Shown piece by piece: positions 38,401 to 49,563 of a stretch of 64,000 bases of DNA. The notes under the pieces are model-generated. The model saw only the letters and a list, made by a program, of their open reading frames with translations, was not told where the DNA came from and ran no database searches. This DNA is from Raillietiella orientalis (lineage: Eukaryota), in contig JAYWIR010000008.1 in the NCBI GenBank assembly GCA_036172245.1, positions 744,001-808,000 of the forward strand. The letters are read 5' to 3'. Numbering within the stretch: position 1 is the stretch's first letter; each line of letters opens with the position of its first letter. The position numbers and the translations under genes are program-made.

Positions 38401-40361
38401 TATTTGGTGGCATCCGATTTTTTTTTTTTTTCTTTCAATCGAACTTGGTTCTCGGAAACCAAAAACTTCGAGCCGGACGCCGACAGCAGGAGAGAATATG
38501 GAGTTCCTGTCTGGATATGATTGCATGGTGGAGAATTGCCTTAATGTCCTTGAATTCGGAATGGAAACACATATGGTTGAACTCTGTGTTATAGGGCCGC
38601 TTTGCAGAGTAGCCCCCAAAGAAACCGAATCTCCCCTCCTCCCGATGCAGTTAGCATTTTAAGCTGCATCTAAATGAGAAATCCAGTTTACGAATGTTTT
38701 CCGGAGAACATTTCGGACCGAGATGTAGTAACGCGTGCTATTTCCGGGATCGAATATAGAAGTCATTCGGGATGGCAGGCAGCATTTGAAAGGTAAACAA
38801 AGAAAAGTCGGGGAGTGACACTTATGTTTCAGTATACACGTGGTGATGTGCACGCGAGTATACGGGTGGGGTATGTGTGGGTGCGCGTGTGTGTATATGT
38901 ATACATATTGAAATGAATTCCTCTCCACCGCACGTTTATCCGATGTGTCCCAGGAATTGAGAAAACATGTTCGAGGTTAATAGTAGTAGTGTCTATCATT
39001 TACAATGATTGCTAATCGTGCATCGGTTAACATATCTGTGCCCAGAAGACCCAAACAGTGGGCAGCATTGGTATACCGGCAGCTAACATGCTTACGATTG
39101 TGGATCCCCGTACTTACATGAACACACGTACAAATGTTCGCGCATGCATGTGTATATAGGCATCTGTGAATGTACCGAAGGAAAGTGTTCACGTTGCTTG
39201 CAGACACTTGCAGTATTTTTACTTGCATCAGCGATGAAATTGACATTTCATTTAAGGATCAAGATGCTTATGTGTGGAACCAGGACGAAAATAAAAAATG
39301 GAAACCGACCCTGGTGCTTTTGCGGATGAGCAGGGCAGCAGTTTGCGTCAAGTGGTCACCATTAGGTGAGGTTGTTGTGTTTTCCATTTCCATACAAATC
39401 CCGGATTAGAAAACAAGTTTGCTGTCGGCTCGGCAGCGAAGCTCATTGCTATATGCTATTTCGAGAAAGCGAATGACTGGTGGGTATCCAAGCATGTAAG
39501 GAAACCACTTGTTTCAACAGTAACAACGTTGGACTGGCATCCTAACAACGTGCTTTTGGCTGCTGGTTCCACAGATTTCAAGGTGCGATCTCAAGTCCTA
39601 CAGTACTATAATTTATCAGGCATTTTTCAGGTGCGTGTGTTTTCTGCCTATATCAAAGAGATAGAAGAAAGACCTGCAGCAACTGTATGGGGACAAAAAA
39701 TGCCTCTGGCGCAACTTATGGCCGTATTTCCAAACTCCCAAGGAGGAGGTAGGGCTCAAAAATGGCAATAAAAAAAAACTCTTATCCTGGCATAGGTGGA
39801 TGGGTGCACTGTGTCAGCTTCTCAGCTGATGGACAAAAACTGTGTTGGGTAGGCCATGATTCCACCATTAGTGTGGCAGATGCTACTGTGCAGCCACCTG
39901 TAGTAACTACTTACCGCAGCAGCATGTTACTCTTTGCAACCTGCACCTGGATCTCAGATCATGATTTAGTAGCTGCTGGCTATGGCTTTTGCCCAGTTGT
40001 CTTCCGAATTGATTCAAGCAATAAACCTGTGATGTGTTTTGTGTTGGGTGCAAATGAGAAACAAGAAACCAGCACCATGAATGCAATGCAGAAATTTCAA
40101 AGTTTGGACAGACAAGCCTGCAGTGAGGACAGTGTCCCCAGCCTTCCCTCCATACACCAGAATGCCATCACTCATCTGTCAATATATTCTGGTACAAAAC
40201 AGCATGCAACCAAGTTTTGCACCACTGGTATGGATGGCCAAATGATTATTTGGCATATCAAGGTAGGAAGACTGTGCATGCACACCCTTTTAATCCCGTT
40301 TCTTTTGCATCAGGATCTGGAAAACGCTTTCAAGTGTAACAGTCAGGTGATTACGTGCTAA
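32426..40361 (+). CDS. ARPC1: Actin-related protein 2/3 complex subunit 1 (p41-ARC / Sop2-like WD40 protein), 7 coding exons, 383 aa
   Basis: Manual join(32426..32510,33550..33701,39257..39365,39410..39582,39631..39748,39796..40262,40314..40361) = 1152 nt, all introns GT-AG and phase-compatible. The translation has ARPC1 hallmarks: [150 protein letters not shown]. Confidence 0.96.
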
Positions 40362-40366
40362 CAAAA

Positions 40367-40381
40367 AATAAAATTAATAAA
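40367..40381 (+). terminator. Tandem AATAAA polyadenylation signals of ARPC1
   Basis: AATAAA at 40367-40372 and 40376-40381, starting 6 and 15 nt after the ARPC1 TAA. Confidence 0.65.
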
Positions 40382-40407
40382 AGTCTATATTTAGTGGGAG
40401 GTTCATA

Positions 40408-40413
40408 TTTATT
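40408..40413 (-). terminator. AATAAA polyadenylation signal of Ars2
   Basis: TTTATT on + (AATAAA on -), ~30 nt downstream of the distal Ars2 TGA at 40445. Confidence 0.6.
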
Positions 40414-40444
40414 TAAAACGATTGGACAACAAAGTACTTTCAGG

Positions 40445-43400
40445 TCAGTCAAAGTCTTCTAATGGCGCATCCCAGTCGCGGTAACTGCGAATTTCACGAC
40501 GAATCCGATTGGCAAAGGCAACAGCACTGTTGGTACTTGGCGTCCTATAAGGGGGAGGCACATGTAAGGAGAACGCAACGGCTGCATATGCTAATGAGGA
40601 GCACACTCAGCACCCCTATAAGAATGCTGTGTGCTTCCTATTAAAAACCCTCTAGAAGTATTCATTGTCCTCATAATGGTCCAGATCGTGGTATCCAATC
40701 ACTTCCCTATGCTCTTGACCATAACCACTGAAAGTGCTGTGCGCCCTTTTCACACCAAGATACCATCCAACCCATTACTAACCTTGATCGACTGTAGCGC
40801 ATGTTTGTTGTGCCACGTTGGTACACATCTCTCGGAGAAAAGCTGTCTCTGCCATAAGAGCTGTTGACCATATTGTAACTATAGTTAGAGGAATATAATG
40901 CAGTACGGTTATAGGTGTTATATCTGCCACAGTTCAGGTGCATACTAGTAAACATGATTGTACTTACTGGCCATAAGCTGATGCTGCAGGTCCATACTCT
41001 GCGGAGAGCCGAGATTCACTGCTTGTGCGTACAGATGCACGTGAGGAGGGATGTTCAGCCAACTGCGGTCTCTTTGGATCTTTCAGATAGTTGTTGAAAT
41101 ATTCCACCTGCAAAGCACAAATGTAACATAAAAACGAAACACGGGTAAAAATGACCTCTTTCTTCACTTCCTCCACTTTTTCTGAATGCTTGTTAAAAAT
41201 ATGCTTGCGCACGAATTCGGGCCCTTTGAATTTTTTACCAGATAAAGGACATAGCCATTTATCTTTAGCCAACTCTTGTGTGTTGGCCTGTATAAATTTT
41301 TCCACCTCTCTGTAAAACACTAGCAATCAAAACTCCCTCTGCTGACCTAAGAACTTACATCTCTGCATCTTTGAGACCCAACTTTAGTGCCTCTTCATTA
41401 CTTAAAGGAGTGGGGGGATTTAGAAAAGGCTGCAACTTCTTTTCAAACAACTGTATGTAATCAGTTATCTCCTCTTGCGTGATTCGTGATGATGGAGGAA
41501 TGCCACGTGCATGCATGATGCCACAACGATTTGGCATCTCATCTTCATGTGGATATTCACTATGATTGTAATAATCTACCGAATGTACAACACGTAGATA
41601 AAGGAGCAATTTATCAAGAACTTTGATTAACGCTTCATCGCGTTCAAGTATCTCCCCAGTTGCAACTGCTGATTCACCAGTGCTATCATTGAGATTGCTA
41701 GTTCCCAGAAGTTCTTCCTCTTCAGCCGAGGCTTCCTCAATAAGATAATCAGTAATATTTTTTAATAAAGGGTTAGCAGATTCTAACAAAAATGCCTACA
41801 CGAGCTTATAATCTTCACTAATAATTTTTCTCACCTCTTTCGTTGCATGAGAGGAAAGTTGGTTTTCTGCAGAATCTGTTCCTTGCCACAAACCATACTT
41901 CTGGTCCAGATTTTGGATGATGCGCGTCGCCATTCTGATGTCTTGCCTTACAACACTCTTGTGTGATGTAATTCCACTAACAGTACGAATGCGCCGATTC
42001 AAATCTCTATTCACTATTGCACCCAGCTCACAATCCCTCAACTTGCAGCAGCAAATGATGTTCGCTTTCAAAGTTGCTACTTACTCGGATGTTATTCAGA
42101 TTCCAGCAGATTTCTTTTATGTTGACACCTCTTTCAAAAGTGACCCACCCTCGTCGGAACCATCGGCGTTCAGGTTGAGGATCTGCTATTGCTGCTCTCA
42201 AAAACCCGGGATAGCGCTTGCACATCTACAAGATTTAGTTGGATGCAAATGAACTTGTTAAAAGGGAAGGTTGCAAACTTACAGCTTCGACTTCTTGCTT
42301 TGTGATGGTAGGTGCCAAGTTACGCAAGAAAATGGAAGCTGTCCTGTGCAATGGTCTTGGTTGCTCAGTAGTAGTGTCCATTTGGTTGTCAGGTTTTATA
42401 CCTTTTGGTTCATCTCCTTCATAATCTGTTTGAGTTTCCTAATATATTGTTCACTAAACTCAATTCAGAGACCATTTATGCATGACTAACCCCACTCCTG
42501 GGAATGCTTTCCTTTGGTGCCACCTGAAGTTCAGCATCTGATGAAGGTGCTGCTTTGATTCCTGAATGGATAAGTTGCAATTTATTATTAAACTGCAATT
42601 TGAATGCTGACCTGTTATTTCATTTTTTTGCAGATCTTCCTCCTCCACATGATCCCCTAAATGAACAACAACAAATGCTAAATTCAATGAGTACAATAAA
42701 TACCTTGGATTTGGGGTTCATCTTCAGCACTGTCTTCACTGCTGCTAGTTTTGGCTTCAAAATCTCTCTTCAGCTTCCTGCTGCTGACTTTGGAACACTT
42801 CAAAAGATTCAGCTAAAGCACAGATTTGCACAAACAATTTACCTGTAGCGTGTCTTCAGCATCAGTTTCTGTCACATCAACGTTTGAAGGTGCTGGAGTT
42901 TCCTCATTTTCAGGTTTCAGCTCACTACACTAAATCATAAATCTGCATGCATTCATCCCTTACCTTTTGACGGATTCCAAATCATTGGATTGCTCTTTGC
43001 TTGCAGAATCCAATACCATGAGATCCATATCAGTACCACCTTCCAATTTGATGACAACAGAATCCAGTAACTTGAGCAGAACCTCAGACTGATCTGCATC
43101 AACAGTCAACTGATCCAAGGTTCCATTGTTGTAAAAATCCATGAATACTTCCAATCGTCTCTAAAATGTTACAATTCTTTTCAATTTGCATCCCATCATT
43201 GAATGAGCAAACTACACTGAAATGATGACGCACTTACCTTCAGAGCATTCTCGTGTTCCTCTTTGCGTTTCAAACTGTCTTCTGGGTGGTATTTGATCTT
43301 GAACCTTGAAAAGATAGACAGTATACTTTCAGTTAAATAAATTAAAGTATTGAATTTCCAGCAAACAGTGCTGGTATGCAACAAGAACAGGAAGACTGCC

Positions 43401-46400
43401 TCAAGCAGCCTGCATGGATTGCAAAAGACCATTTACCTCACATCTATGTCGTACATCTCTGCCAAAAATGGGCACGCATGCCCACCCTACTTTATAAAAG
43501 CAGCTGCTAATCTACAGTTCATCATAGAGTTCAGAGTACACTGAGCACAATACAATGATAATCACGTAACAAATGACTCGTAATCACAGCACTAACTCAA
43601 TACAGAAAAAATATGTAATGCGAATCACTAGCTCAAAATGCACAGATTCAAAGATGTCTTGTAAAATAGCTCTGAGGGAAGAATATAAGTAGTGTGGATC
43701 GCCTGTCAATAGAGGTTGCAAGTAGACGGATTTAGCAGATAGATAGCTAACTTTCTTACCATTCTTCCTCTTTATGGGTCAGAAAGAACTCATTCAACTG
43801 TTGTTTTTTGAAGTCCAGTTTATATTCATTGTACTTGCTTATCGCTTCTTCATCAGTGATGTTGTCATCTTGCTGGGCCAAAAAAGACTTAAAGGAGAGC
43901 ATTGGTGGCTGTGTAGGGCCATAATCTTCCTCTCTGAAAATAATTTTTTTTTGTTACTCCTTTAATGTCAATGATTATTACTGGATGCTTGCAAAAGGTT
44001 GAGAAAGTATTAACATTTACATGTTGTGTCTATTTGCTGAAACATTTTGGGTATTCTGAAGGTGATAAGTTCAAGCACAAATACTACATCTGTAAATACA
44101 ACAAGCAAGCAATTTGCAAAAATCACATTTAATTGGTATATAATGCCGATCGTGAAAGATTAGCAGTAAGAAAAGAAATACAACTTGATTTCTACTCGTT
44201 CTAAATCAAGATAAACAGAAATATACCAATACAATGTATTACTTTATAAACAGAAAATCACAAGCCAAAAGAAAATAACCTCTATCAAAGGAAATCATGA
44301 TGAACATCCTTCCTAAAAAATGCAGAAAATCCTCTATAAGCACAAGTTTGAAAAACCCTATTAAACACTTTTCTTTCAGACACATACACGGAAACGTTCA
44401 AATATAGGAATTATTCTTGTATTCCAAAAAACAAAACAAAACAAAAAAAACAAAAAATGAATAGTAACTCCAGGAGATTTTATAAGCAATAAGAAATACT
44501 GAAAAATTCCAAAATCACAGCCGATTGCAGGCATTTACACAGTTTCCTTCGACCTTCTTTTGCGAAAAATTTCTTTGGTTGATCGCAGTACACCCTGGAT
44601 AAAACAAACTCAGAAAATCCTGATTATTTAAGTGACCATTTATTTTACACATTTTTATACTTGTGCTTTATGCAACGATTTGATATAAACATCTAAAACA
44701 AGCTTCATGGAAAGCCCATGATCTAAAAATAATCGAATCATAATGTTCAAAACAAGTATCGCAAAAATCATGTTCCTGCTCTCAAAACAAAAGTGAACTG
44801 CAGGCTGAGATGCAGTTCAAGCCAGTACATTGACTTTTATGAAAACCTGATTTATGCTCCTGATCCAATTACATATAATGCTTGCGAAATAAAAAAAAAG
44901 GGGGGTGTATTAATCGAAAAATGTAAGTACTGTAAACATCATCATGGCAACAGTTACGAATCTAACAAGTTCTAGGATACTGAAAATAAGACTTTTTGCA
45001 AAACGACAATTCCTCGCAGAACTTACAAGCACTCAGAAACGTGTATGAGATCAAACAAGCCTTCTCCATAGATTAATTGTAAAACTCCTATACAAATCTC
45101 AGCAACAGTGCATTTGCATGTAAAAAACTTGTAAAATTTGGTATTTCCACCATGTGCGATCCAGATTTTGGCAGGATCTGTCCAGTAAAAGGCACCATGT
45201 TTTAAAATATGCAGTAGTTCGTAAGACTGAAAACAAGTGCTCATGAAACTATTTCAAGAGGTGGATGCATACAAAGAGATGTCATGACGAAAGTCAAGCA
45301 AAATCCAATTAATTTTCAATTCATTCCAACAAGACTGAAATGAACTAGAAAAGATCACAGCCAAGAACAAGGAGAAATGGTTAACATGGAACTAAAGTTG
45401 TGTACTCAACAACAAAAGAAAATAAAACAAAACTCAATGCAATGCAGTACAATTATTATGCAAAGCTGATGGAAGCATTGCTGACAAACAATTAGGCAAC
45501 TGTTAATTTGATGCACATTAAAGTTACTCGTAGGATTTTTCAGGCACAAATTCCTAATTCACATTCTAAGAAAGATTACCTTTCGCTCTTAATTTTTTAA
45601 TTACTAAATCTCCTAATGCTAGTGGAAAATACATTTGAGTTTCAAACCCTTAATAAGTTTCAAAAGACAGCAAATAAACTGACTTGATAAAAATCATTTC
45701 GCCAAAATAAAAATACACTTACAAGCCACTACTTACATCCTTCTTTCAAAACAAAACTGGCCTAGGAGAAACACTCTATACAACAAATATTTATTGACAC
45801 TGATGCAATTTAGTTTTAAGCAGAAAATAAATAATCCTACATTAATTCTATCATCTCAAATAGCAAATGTAACACTAAACTAACATGAGGGTCGTGGTAT
45901 ACTTTCATGGAAATATTCATGTATTAAAACAAGGTAACGCTACTTATAGCAAAAAAACAAAAATTAAATGAAACCATAACCTGCTAACACTTTACAAGTT
46001 TTCCAGCTATGATTTTTTAACTCTAAATTCCTTTCAGTATAAGTAAATGACCTGGAGTTACTGAAGTAACTTTTTTTTTTTGTCATTATAGTTTGATCAT
46101 TTTATCTTTATTAAAAACACTCGTACAAATGTATACATAAATAAATAATATTGCTTTAGTTCTTAAAGATGTGATTAACTAATTCGATGTCATTTACTAA
46201 TAGCTGGCTTCACAAAATATGATGCATGAATATCTTGAGAAAATGAATACAGCTATGTATCCAAATTACAAACACAACTACATGCTACTCATGAATTAAA
46301 ATCAAATAAAACTGCATCCATGGTGAAATCCTTTTGTGATTCATAAATATATTTAATATCTTATATATGTTATCCAACACATGTAGATACTTGTAAAATT

Positions 46401-49400
46401 CATTACTTACTTCATGGATTTAATTTAACTTTGTAGAGTCTGAGATAATGATTTACACTTCAGAATTCTTTAAATGATGCCGTTCATTCAAAAAATATCA
46501 CAAAATTCTAAAACTTGCAATTACTAACCTTGGAATTACTTACACTATTGACACAAATGAAAACACCCCATTCAAAAAAAAAATCCGCTCTACCAAACAA
46601 CTACATTGAAAAACTTGTACTATTTTTCCATTCTTCAAGAAATTCAGCATTCTTCAAGATATTCAGGTTTGCTCACCTTAATAGGTGTTTACAAACCTGC
46701 ATGTGAAAAAGGATGCATGCAATTTTATTTGATTTTAATTCATAAGTAGCATGAAGTTGTGTTTGTAGTTCTGGATGCATAGCTGTATTCATGTTTTCAA
46801 GATATTCATGTGTCAAACCTGTGTGCGAAAATTCAAAGACTAAACAAAATATTACTAAAGCTAACAACCATAGTGAAGGAAAATTTACATAATATAATAG
46901 CTGGAATTTTCCTAAATACTCAGAATATATTATAAATAAATATCTTATTCTATTATCAAACAAATGTAATGACCAAACAAATGTAATGACTTGATGCAGA
47001 GCACATTGGATGTCCAAAAAGAAAAAAGAGCAGTATATATGTGTGTAATGTTAGGATTTCATATACTTCATGAAATCTGAGGAACTCAGTGAGCAAATCA
47101 TGTATAATTATTAAGATGCATATTGAGAAATCAGTCAGTTTACAAAAAAAACTAGACAACTTATTAGCTAGCATACCTGTTGGTATAGTTAGATCCGTAT
47201 GTAACAGCAGGAGAAGCACTGCATGGATATGATGAATATGCATCTGATGCATATGAGGAATATCCACTGTAGGAGTTATCTGCATAGGCATATCTTTTTT
47301 CCTCCCTAAATAACAGTTACAATAGTTACTACGCCATCTGGTTTCAATTACCAATCATTGCGGACTCTTTTCACAGGAGGGCTAAATTCATGTGTTCGTC
47401 TCGGACTATATGCCCTATCTCTTGCAGTATTTCGATAATCTCGGGCCCCCAAGGCTCCATAATCTCCTCTTCTCGACTGGTTCCACGTGTCACTTCTGTC
47501 ACCTCTACCTCGCCCAGCATAATTTAGGGAAGGAGTTTTCCCACCTCTAAGAAACAAAACAAAAAAGAATTCTTGATAAAAATCTGGGATGCCAGATACT
47601 GTCACCTAAATTTGATTTTGAAATAAACGTGTACTTAATTTTCGTAAAAAAAATTTAAAATCATGCACCAAACAAGAAATTTAAATCACAATCTGAAAAT
47701 AAGTGCTAATGATGAAATGATCTCTATCATTTTTGTTACCATGAGCTACATCTAGACTTATTATTTATGAAAAATAAAAATATCGCACCAAAACTATTGA
47801 AATTAAACGTGTCACATCATTCATTGAATTCGATAATCTTTTACTTTTTATTGCAACTTATAATACTGTAAGTCTTCCACTACAGCATCCTCAAAAAACT
47901 GCATTTCCAAACACTGCAAATTTACGTCTTCTTGAGAATTCCCAAATTCTCATAGAAGTTTTTAAAATCCAATCTATACGTTGAGAAGAAAGCCCTTGGT
48001 CCATTTTCATGAAACACTTTACTTAGAGTTTATTTTCACAAAACAAGATTTTTGGAACACAATTTCAAAACTTAATCCTCACTGATGACAGTAATACAAT
48101 TTTCTGTTGATATATATTTCAAAGAAATGCCTAAAGTAAATCCAAAACCAGTGAATAAACATCTGTATACTTATGTCAAACACCTTTAAAGAGATAAAGA
48201 ACTAAAATTATGCAGTATGCCAAGTAATAACTAACAAACTAACAAACAGATTCAATAACATGGTAACATCAAACAGAGATGGATATTCATAAATATTTAG
48301 CTGCATTGCTGCAGTTCTGTAAAACAAAATTAGAGAGTCTGCAAATTAGAGAATTAAAAATACAATTATTTGTTTTTGGTTATAGAAACTCCTTGAAAAT
48401 CTCAAACGCATACTTCTCTTTCTACTGGAATTCCAGATTAATTCTTCATATGAGAATTCAGAAACTTTATGACAAACTGTTGTAAAAAAAAATTATGAAC
48501 ATAAAGGATGATGATCTCAATCATGCCTACTTTTTTTTATTGCTATTTATTCTACAAGCAACTTTATCTTGCGTACTTTTATTATTTTTACTCATTATAA
48601 TATTTTAAAACTGTTTTGATTTTACTTAAGCCTGTCCTGCAGTCATGCTTTTGGTTTAAGACAAGTATTTATGTAAAATTTGAATTTTAAATTCATATGT
48701 GCACATGAATGTAAAATTTGATCAATGTACACTCTAGAAAGTTATAAAATGATCTTCAACGAAAAAATTTCTAAAAGAGGAAACTTACACTCCAAAATTG
48801 ATTACTTTATTGCAGATGTGGAAAAAATGAACATTCACTAAAATACTTTTTGGGAAATTCAAAATACTTTGCTACTGATTCTAAAATACCTTTTTCAAAT
48901 TAAAAGTAGAAAAGATAATGGCATTACTTCAATGGAGACTAACAGAAAATATACGCTTCTTCATTTTTTCTCAATTACATATTACATGAAACCTTTCCAT
49001 TTCCTTCAATAAGATATTACAGTAAAATAGAACGTAAAGCATTCTAATTACGGTAAATACCACAAAAACACCTGATAAGATCTGAATAGAAATTATCCAC
49101 CATACTGCATTTTAAAAAGAAATTTTCACATTGCAGAAAAGTCATTAACTTTTTTAACCTCATGAACATTGAGACAGAGACATTAACACCAACGATATTC
49201 CAATTTTTTTCAGATCTCACAACAAAACAACGGACATAATCAACGTTACTGATAATTTATAAAATAACCACTTATATTGTCTTTATACCCTGATACTGTG
49301 TTATATAAATAAATTTTGCGAAAATCAATCACTAATAAAATACAGAACAAAGCAAAAACGTATACTTATGTGATTTTCAACATAAATGTGCCAAAAAAAA

Positions 49401-49563
49401 CGCAAAAGAAGGTAGATTTCTCACATAACGTATACCTGTCACTCCATTCATCACTCCTTCTTTGAGAACGATCATCCCTTCGCTCGGGCTGATAATCGCT
49501 TCGCTCTTTTCTGAATTTTTCTCTGCTTCGTCTTCTATCGTACTCATCATCACTATCACCCAT
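40445..49563 (-). CDS. Ars2: Serrate RNA effector / arsenite-resistance protein 2, isoform with the distal last exon, 18 coding exons, ~885 aa
   Basis: Manual complement join of 49436..49563, 47352..47546, 47177..47305, 43760..43933, 43238..43304, 42964..43160, 42843..42924, 42704..42797 (or ..42812), 42612..42656, 42491..42561, 42283..42438, 42085..42225, 41835..42041, 41359..41795, 41156..41309, 40968..41107, 40783..40923, 40445..40544 = 2658 nt in frame. Hallmarks: [12 protein letters not shown] start, [40 protein letters not shown] ([15 protein letters not shown]...WFRRGWVTF...[15 protein letters not shown]), [13 protein letters not shown]...[15 protein letters not shown], zinc finger [26 protein letters not shown]-terminal YRDWDAP. 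Confidence 0.95.
40652..40736 (-). CDS. Ars2: Alternative (proximal) last coding exon of Ars2, encoding [28 protein letters not shown]
   Basis: In frame with the phase-2 donor AG|GTTAGT at 40783/40782. In-frame acceptors give introns of 37, 46 (CAG, exon start 40736) or 55 nt (TTTCAG, exon start 40727). The exon ends in TAG at 40652-40654, and the peptide carries an ARS2-type R-x4-Y-x-DLD motif plus a terminal Phe. Confidence 0.8.

Follow-up and report, generated by a model that had tools for sequence, protein, structure and literature searches.

What is the meaning of two open exons, in tandem, which could both provide the end of the same protein? This question is raised by the Ars2 (SRRT) gene of Raillietiella orientalis, located on the reverse strand of a stretch of 64,000 nucleotides (nt) from contig JAYWIR010000008.1 (assembly GCA_036172245.1, positions 744,001 to 808,000). 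This whole stretch is called the window, and all positions given below refer to it unless a related locus is named. A previous sequence-only reading had proposed that the gene has two interchangeable C-terminal exons, each with a docking motif for the cap-binding complex (CBC). To us it seems quite probable, from sequence comparisons, that the 3' end of this gene carries a pair of alternative tail exons found throughout the arthropods, with one donor and one poly(A) site for both. The proximal exon is called A and the distal one B, and their coordinates are given in Table 1.

The 3' end of the Ars2 gene

The ARS2 C-terminal domain (PF04959) is found at 40964-41326(-), with 123.6 bits (cut-off 30) and an E-value of 1.5e-35, and a second match to the same family at 41355-41795(-) has an E-value of 1e-7. 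The SERRATE/Ars2 N-terminal domain (SERRATE_Ars2_N, PF12066) is found at 43756-43953(-), with an E-value of 2.7e-15. Tblastn searches with the Ars2 proteins of Tachypleus and Halocaridina cover the region from 49563 down to 40988. When the 146 amino acid exon at 41355-41795 is used as a query, 1176 homologues are obtained with E-values of 1e-10 or lower. Among the best 120 of them, all named proteins are arthropod Ars2/SRRT, and the top identities, found in decapods, horseshoe crab and spiders, are about 70%. This places the organism among the arthropods, with no close relative in the collection searched. The Pfam ARS2 model stops short of the protein end: A scan of the penultimate exon and both tail exons, with a maximum E-value of 10, only gives weak matches to unrelated families.

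The codons before the donor are CGA TCA AG/GTTAGT, in phase 2, as read directly and recomputed by script (the bar marks the splice site). Three acceptors are in frame with this donor, whose exon ends at 40783: The resulting exons start at 40736, 40727 and 40544. The distal acceptor, CCTCCCCCTTATAG at 40546-45, defines a 238 nt intron and keeps the frame into exon B, also recomputed. In this respect the earlier reading, which joined a phase-2 donor in frame to a proximal and a distal acceptor, was correct in its coordinates and peptides. The pyrimidine fraction upstream of the acceptors is 0.35 for the 46 nt intron, 0.45 for the 55 nt intron and 0.75 for the distal one, which is the strongest of the region; for comparison, confirmed or inferred introns have values of 0.6-0.7.

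Three nearby introns are confirmed by RNA at 48-49 nt, including two of Ars2, 41108-41155 and 41310-41358 (-). The run compared, over positions 39000-47000, is RNA-like (its kind is a guess), and provides four contigs from a relative at 95-99%. It was the single run obtained in a search for sequencing data (share 0.07), which found none recorded as RNA. The Ars2 introns of this size indicate a genome with very short introns, which makes a 55 nt proximal tail intron plausible and the 238 nt distal one unusually long. The 46 nt intron, which had previously been put first, is in frame as claimed, but the 55 nt intron with its TTTCAG acceptor, previously named only among the junctions to be checked, is the more likely proximal one to judge from the sequence, because the 46 nt version is purine-rich and shorter than the confirmed introns. 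Intron retention as a normal product was considered separately and rejected: Read-through past 40783 encodes no Ars2 motif.

From the proximal stop to the distal acceptor, the sequence contains none of the hexamers AATAAA, ATTAAA, AATATA, AGTAAA and TATAAA. The AATAAA at 40413-40408 begins 31 nt past the distal stop. The claim of a poly(A) signal at 40408 shared by both tails, with no AATAAA between them, agrees with this arrangement: It is the sole AATAAA, and it lies past the distal stop.

Two types of tail in arthropods

The pattern Y.D[LVW][DG] appears within the last 32 residues in 93 of the best 120 homologues listed; the remaining 27 are truncated or end at an exon border. When aligned by their tyrosine (Y), the 93 tails sort into two patterns. 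Type A corresponds to (D/E)PRE(V/I)IG-Y(H/D/G/Q..)D(L/V)D followed by eight residues, and mostly ends in Phe. Type B corresponds to YRD(L/W)DAP followed by a variable end. There are 91 unique tails in all, 40 of type A and 51 of type B. Arginine five residues before the tyrosine (Y-5) is found in 39/40 A tails and 51/51 B tails. The dipeptide AP is present in 16/40 A tails and 48/51 B tails, and an exact Phe end twelve residues after the tyrosine (Y+12) in 27/40 and 6/51, respectively. In B tails, Phe is frequent at Y+12 with one further residue behind it.

Both types are present in isoforms of a single species in 18 cases, according to source names and sequences. These are Dermacentor andersoni (X2/X6), Schistocerca gregaria (X11/X13), Amphibalanus amphitrite (X1/X2), Daphnia pulex, Trichonephila clavipes, Penaeus vannamei (X1 vs X2), P. 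japonicus, P. chinensis, P. indicus, Panulirus ornatus, Procambarus clarkii, Cherax quadricarinatus, Macrobrachium rosenbergii, Tachypleus tridentatus, Homarus americanus (X1/X2 vs X3/X4), Drosophila yakuba (X5/X2), D. teissieri (X5/X2) and Eufriesea mexicana (X2/X4). Such arthropod isoforms do not differ in the protein body as far as a single junction, after which comes a type A or a type B tail. It had been suspected that alternative tails might already exist in arthropod annotations, and they do, in these 18 species, including Drosophila.

The distal exon of the window falls in type B, represented in decapods by VGYRDLDAPKEDY, and the proximal exon falls in type A. Both are divergent members of their types, and the Ars2 of the window is only about 70% identical to its best matches in a conserved exon. 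Tail A differs from many arthropod A tails in having HY in place of AP. The W of YRDWDAP in tail B is shared with some copepod-like and mite sequences, and this tail ends in DFD.

Fly type A tails keep Phe at Y+12 and add one terminal Asp (..SDMFD, ..FDIFD). The tails read were P0250, P0266, P0268 and P0269 from Drosophila, and P0243, P0247, P0254 and P0277 from other flies. The added Asp means that the terminal carboxylate is displaced in type A too, which does not fit a simple rule of a terminal Phe in A and none in B.

Both types of tail in the window

Hidden Markov models (HMMs) were built from 32 unique type A tails (HMM-A) and 28 unique type B tails (HMM-B) of the database matches, with the window sequence excluded, and run on all 3412 stop-to-stop open reading frames (ORFs) of at least 8 amino acids in the six frames of the window. 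HMM-A gives 25.2 bits (E-value 2e-6) to the proximal ORF and 11.1 bits to the distal one, and the best of the remaining ORFs has 4.6 bits. HMM-B gives 21.0 bits (E-value 4e-5) to the distal ORF and 5.7 bits to the proximal one, and the best of the remaining ORFs has 3.7 bits. Just these two of the 3412 ORFs exceed 5 bits, and each scores best with its own type. By this measure the tail resemblance of the proximal and distal ORFs is greater than expected by chance, and none of the other ORFs of the 64 kb looks like a tail of Ars2.

Two further searches with tail A were negative. A phmmer search against PDB chains gave no match. When the 40 amino acid stop-to-stop A ORF was used as a homologue query, no protein sharing three words with it was found. 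This result carries little weight, since several five-residue words of this ORF can be seen in decapod proteins.

Genomic order and spliced transcripts in related loci

Metagenome contigs were scanned with an alignment of 21 C-terminal fragments, which returned 80 loci. With a threshold of at least 12 bits for a tail match, 48 of them have at least one tail and 13 have two. Exon A precedes exon B in 12 of these 13 loci, and B before A is found in none; in the thirteenth, L001, the general HMMs do not clearly assign the downstream exon to either type (A 14.5, B 11.8 bits). The gap between both exons is about 80-330 nt in the related loci and about 1.1 kb in ant. Together with the isoforms of the 18 species, this order strongly supports the proposal of two interchangeable C-terminal exons with CBC-docking motifs.

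HMMs trained only on chelicerate tails (8 A and 15 B) provide a test across the deepest arthropod split. In the window, exon A scores 26.6 bits with the chelicerate HMM-A and 4.2 bits with HMM-B, and exon B scores 21.0 bits with HMM-B and 4.7 bits with HMM-A. The proximal exon is assigned to A and the distal exon to B in 24/24 exons, from the window and 11 loci. Of the three near-copies L058, L059 and L060 only L059 was included, and L001 may itself belong to a chelicerate. The tail-exon duplication thus most likely predates the chelicerate-mandibulate split, a dating which depends in part on training labels assigned by sequence pattern.

Contigs with an ORF of at least 700 amino acids running into a tail must be spliced. 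There are 24 of them, 6 with an A tail and 18 with a B tail; several of those with B are one sequence obtained from different samples. In two of the loci, the Daphnia-like L006 and the copepod-like L012, the donor is spliced to A, and downstream there is still the spacer in unspliced form, with the B acceptor and the complete exon B. In L006, an AATAAA follows exon B. This architecture matches the one predicted if the choice is between two 3' splice sites and the poly(A) site is common to both forms, and the idea of a shared site gains from it, since these A-form contigs hold unspliced B in their 3' untranslated region (3'UTR).

Some related loci show variants of this arrangement. The Daphnia-like L050 has the same phase-2 donor, GG/GTAAGT, and its exon A stop overlaps an AATAAA (TTC TAA TAA AG, L050:2274-2282). 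The Daphnia-like lineage may thus also end A-form mRNAs through early polyadenylation, although L006, a related contig which is spliced, continues through exon B. Five copepod-like loci have a donor-like CAG/GT(G/T)(T/G/C)GT soon after the exon A stop. In copepod-like lineages exon A may be a cassette exon which is spliced on to B, and the position of these sites suggests that fewer than about 70 nt would then separate the A stop from the last junction.

Other loci have a single tail exon, either ..SYEDLDAPNE(M/T)L(I/F) in L036, L048 and L056, or ..SYRDLDAP(S/P)EPDDF in L049 and L064. The latter combines YRDLDAP with a terminal Phe at Y+12, like the human tail. The Ars2 loci of both kinds are 42-47% identical to the query, and a second tail is absent from 2-9 kb of downstream sequence in L056 and L064. 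These five loci may show the unduplicated state, outside arthropods.

Motifs for binding the cap-binding complex

The binding of human ARS2 to CBC has been described in a structural study (Schulze and Cusack 2017, PMC5670239) and in a later preprint (bioRxiv 10.1101/2023.07.25.550453). Human ARS2 contacts CBC solely via its last 27 residues (PMC5670239), at a site shared with NELF-E, as the sequence-only reading had stated. The peptide consists of three blocks, 852-DPRAIVEYRD-861, 862-LDAPDD-867 and 868-VDFF-871, with Asp852, Arg854 and Tyr859 as key residues. The central block is the most conserved one, has no density in the structure and may have another role. The last block occupies a distal pocket, in which His651 is contacted by Phe871 and by the terminal carboxylate. 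The dissociation constant (KD) of the peptide is 1.0 uM, and 1.8 uM for F871D, and binding of R854A/Y859A is not detectable (PMC5670239). The preprint distinguishes a proximal RxxxxY site, used by ARS2 and NELF-E, and a distal ...xDxF-COOH site, used by ARS2, NELF-E and PHAX (bioRxiv 10.1101/2023.07.25.550453).

Both tails of the window contain the RxxxxY motif, R-EVIG-Y in A and R-EIRS-Y in B. Tail A ends in NEYF: Phe is the last residue, at Y+12 as in human ARS2, and Glu replaces Asp two residues before it, a conservative change. Tail B ends in EDFD, 11 residues after the tyrosine, so it is one residue shorter than tail A and its last residue is Asp; it retains Arg at Y-5, the tyrosine and the D(L/W)DAP block. 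The terminal F noted earlier for the YHDLD tail, and its absence from the YRDWD tail, are thus correct. Compared with the human peptide (PMC5670239), tail A has its Arg, Tyr and Phe spacing, and tail B has its Arg and Tyr with the RxxxxY spacing. On the other hand, human ARS2 is described with a single C-terminal peptide, which unites features that are split between two exons in arthropods.

Both forms of Ars2 should therefore dock in the proximal groove of CBC, to judge from their motifs, and by analogy with the human protein CBC binding by both tails may be presumed. The earlier reading had suggested that the switch could tune the affinity of ARS2 for CBC. The terminal Phe by itself should not make a large difference in affinity: In the human peptide F871D has an effect of less than two-fold, whereas R854A/Y859A abolishes binding, and both tails keep this Arg and Tyr. 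If there is a functional split, it would more plausibly lie in the sharing of the distal groove or in an unknown partner of the DLDAP block.

Two known systems may be compared with this one. NELF-E uses the same proximal RxxxxY site, and NELF-E and PHAX the same distal ...xDxF-COOH site, but they are separate proteins which compete with ARS2 (PMC5670239; bioRxiv 10.1101/2023.07.25.550453), whereas the variation in the window lies inside Ars2 and would be set by splicing. The splice isoforms of human ARS2 intron 5 (PMC8860587) also alter ARS2 function through alternative splicing, but this event lies away from the CBC-binding tail; the title of the article refers to a cytoplasmic isoform switch.

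Proposed mechanism and alternative explanations

According to the explanation we prefer, an ancient tandem duplication of the exon encoding the CBC-binding tail would have given rise to exons A and B. The phase-2 donor would have two possible partners. The proximal acceptor, which is weak and most likely the TTTCAG with exon start 40727, would produce a type A tail, and the distal acceptor, which is strong and has its exon start at 40544, a type B tail. In the first case everything downstream of the A stop (40654-52), exon B included, would be 3'UTR. The poly(A) site past AATAAA 40413-08 would provide the end of both mRNAs, and both junctions are presumably used in this organism. The RxxxxY of both tails would occupy the proximal CBP20-CBP80 groove, which this motif fills in human ARS2, where it contributes most of the binding energy. 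Only tail A has the C-terminal Phe exactly 12 residues past the tyrosine, which would act as anchor in the distal groove; tail B has YRD(L/W)DAP and ends in DFD. The choice of splice site would then alter which partners share CBC, rather than affinity alone.

Several observations weigh against this explanation. The RNA-like contigs of the relative span introns nearby and leave 40068-40868, where the tails lie, uncovered. Both proximal acceptors are weak (0.35 and 0.45), so tail A could be rare here, and it has HY where many type A tails have AP, though AP is present in only 16/40 of them. Many of the named isoforms are automatic predictions. The A and B training labels were assigned by sequence pattern (B being defined by R at Y+1 plus AP or RP), and a single row, P0115, was assigned to A manually. 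Statistics on the Y+1 and AP positions are therefore partly circular. As for the role of the terminal Phe, F871D only shifts the KD of the human peptide from 1.0 to 1.8 uM (PMC5670239).

Among the other possibilities, we find it rather unlikely that exon A is a cassette exon with its own donor, GTGTGC at 40606-01, followed by a 62 nt intron to B. The A-form stop would then lie 45 nt before the last junction, and the coding outcome would be the same as in the alternative 3' splice site model. The model for such an exon is found in L024, L041, L045, L047 and L052, which have CAG/GTGTGT, GTGGGT or GTTCGT-like sites about 16-66 nt after the A stop, and in the window GTGTGC follows the stop at 45 nt and would leave 62 nt up to the B acceptor, near the local intron size. 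Nevertheless, it is preceded by TGA and not by CAG, it is a weaker candidate donor than the sites of those loci, and the spliced A-form contigs L006 and L012 keep the whole spacer unspliced. It is less probable still that this species uses only exon B, A being a decaying relic which is still open. The weak A acceptors could be explained in this way, as could the replacement of AP by HY and the search with the 40 amino acid A ORF, which found no protein sharing enough words. However, the A ORF has no interruption, and two acceptors bring it into frame with the donor. Arg at Y-5 and the tyrosine are retained, a stop comes directly behind Phe at Y+12, and the ORF scores 25-27 bits on profiles free of sequences from this lineage; moreover, weak proximal acceptors are a requirement of regulated choice.

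The opposite case, in which only A is used and B persists as mere 3'UTR, appears very improbable. The A-form mRNAs of relatives do carry B untranslated, but the B acceptor of the window is the strongest of the region (0.75 pyrimidine), the B ORF is intact, in frame and scores 21 bits, and 18/24 long-ORF contigs of relatives end in B. That both ORFs are chance open frames unrelated to Ars2 tails is hardly credible: They are short, and the Pfam ARS2 model does not reach them, but they are the sole two HMM matches in 64 kb, each with its own type, in the same position and order as in other arthropods. This reading is refuted as far as sequence allows.

Features of the region and neighbouring gene

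The features of the region are collected in Table 1, together with the related loci. Past the 3' end of Ars2 there is a convergent gene with WD40 repeats, at 39370-40361 (+), whose Pfam matches to WD40 and beta-propeller families are weak. We take it to be a candidate for a gene resembling Arp2/3 complex subunit 1 (ARPC1), presumably. It has a 48 nt intron, at about 39583-39630, confirmed by a spliced contig of the related RNA-like run. No more than about 50 nt separate the end of its last open frame from the AATAAA of Ars2, and the 3' ends of both genes thus abut or overlap.

Table 1. Features of the Ars2 3' end in the window, and related loci with two tails
Feature	Position	Strand	Remarks
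Ars2/SRRT gene, approximate extent	40390..49563	-	Pfam and tblastn; 3' limit placed from AATAAA at 40413-40408
Acceptor TATAG upstream of penultimate exon	40880-79	-	Putative, from sequence
Penultimate coding exon	40783..40878	-	Phase 2 end, ..TCA AG/; read and translated
Shared 5' splice site GTTAGT	40777..40782	-	Sequence
Proximal intron, 55 nt	40728..40782	-	Acceptor TTTCAG (AG 40729-28); in frame
Alternative proximal intron, 46 nt	exon start 40736	-	Acceptor AG 40738-37; in frame
Exon A (type A tail)	40652..40727	-	HMM-A; stop TAG 40654-52; start 40736 with 46 nt intron
Spacer between A stop and exon B	40545..40651	-	No poly(A) hexamer; contains CCTCCCCCTTATAG acceptor tract
Candidate donor GTGTGC in spacer	40606-01	-	Sequence reading, by analogy with copepod-like loci
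Exon B (type B tail)	40445..40544	-	HMM-B; stop TGA 40447-45
Poly(A) hexamer AATAAA	40408..40413	-	Only canonical one downstream of either stop
Two-tail loci, Daphnia-like tails	L006, L009, L050
Two-tail loci, tails like copepod Tigriopus	L012, L024, L041, L045, L047, L052
Two-tail loci, near-copies of one another	L058-L060		L059 exon 99% identical to Atta colombica
Two-tail locus, mite-like	L001
Donor-like sites after exon A stop	L024:2380-2392, L041:2528-2540, L045:5018-5030, L047:12160-12172, L052:9052-9064

Meaning of the two tails

Alternative Ars2 tails are not new to databases. By its sequence, the gene in the window is a new, rather divergent member of an event which is annotated from horseshoe crab to Drosophila, and for the window itself the result is an ordinary gene end, in agreement with the public annotation of many arthropods. 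A full-text literature search found no paper on alternative Ars2 C-terminal tails, in a collection which leaves most subscription journals outside, so that absence from print is not established. In the available parts of the structural papers, the ARS2 tail is treated as one sequence (PMC5670239; bioRxiv 10.1101/2023.07.25.550453).

A more speculative proposal, which we regard as doubtful, is that the tails have become subfunctionalised. An ancestral tail with three roles would have been halved between exons A and B. Tail A would be a two-point clamp on CBC, formed by (D/E)xR...Y and the terminal Phe at a fixed spacing. Tail B would keep YRDLDAP, the invariant block which has no density in the 2017 structure and for which another role was suggested; mostly without a terminal Phe, it would leave the distal groove free for PHAX-like effectors ending in ...xDxF-COOH. 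A single donor would thus set mutually exclusive complexes of CBC, Ars2 and effector, for example for export of small nuclear RNA or for decay, and this switch would have been retained since before the chelicerate-mandibulate split. This proposal can be tested directly in Drosophila, which has both tails.

In summary, the sole part of ARS2 known to bind CBC has two alternative, separately conserved versions in arthropods, in a fixed genomic order. This wider point may be useful to those who study CBC and ARS2: If the tails differ in the way they share CBC with PHAX, NELF-E or other partners, they would be a natural separation-of-function pair.

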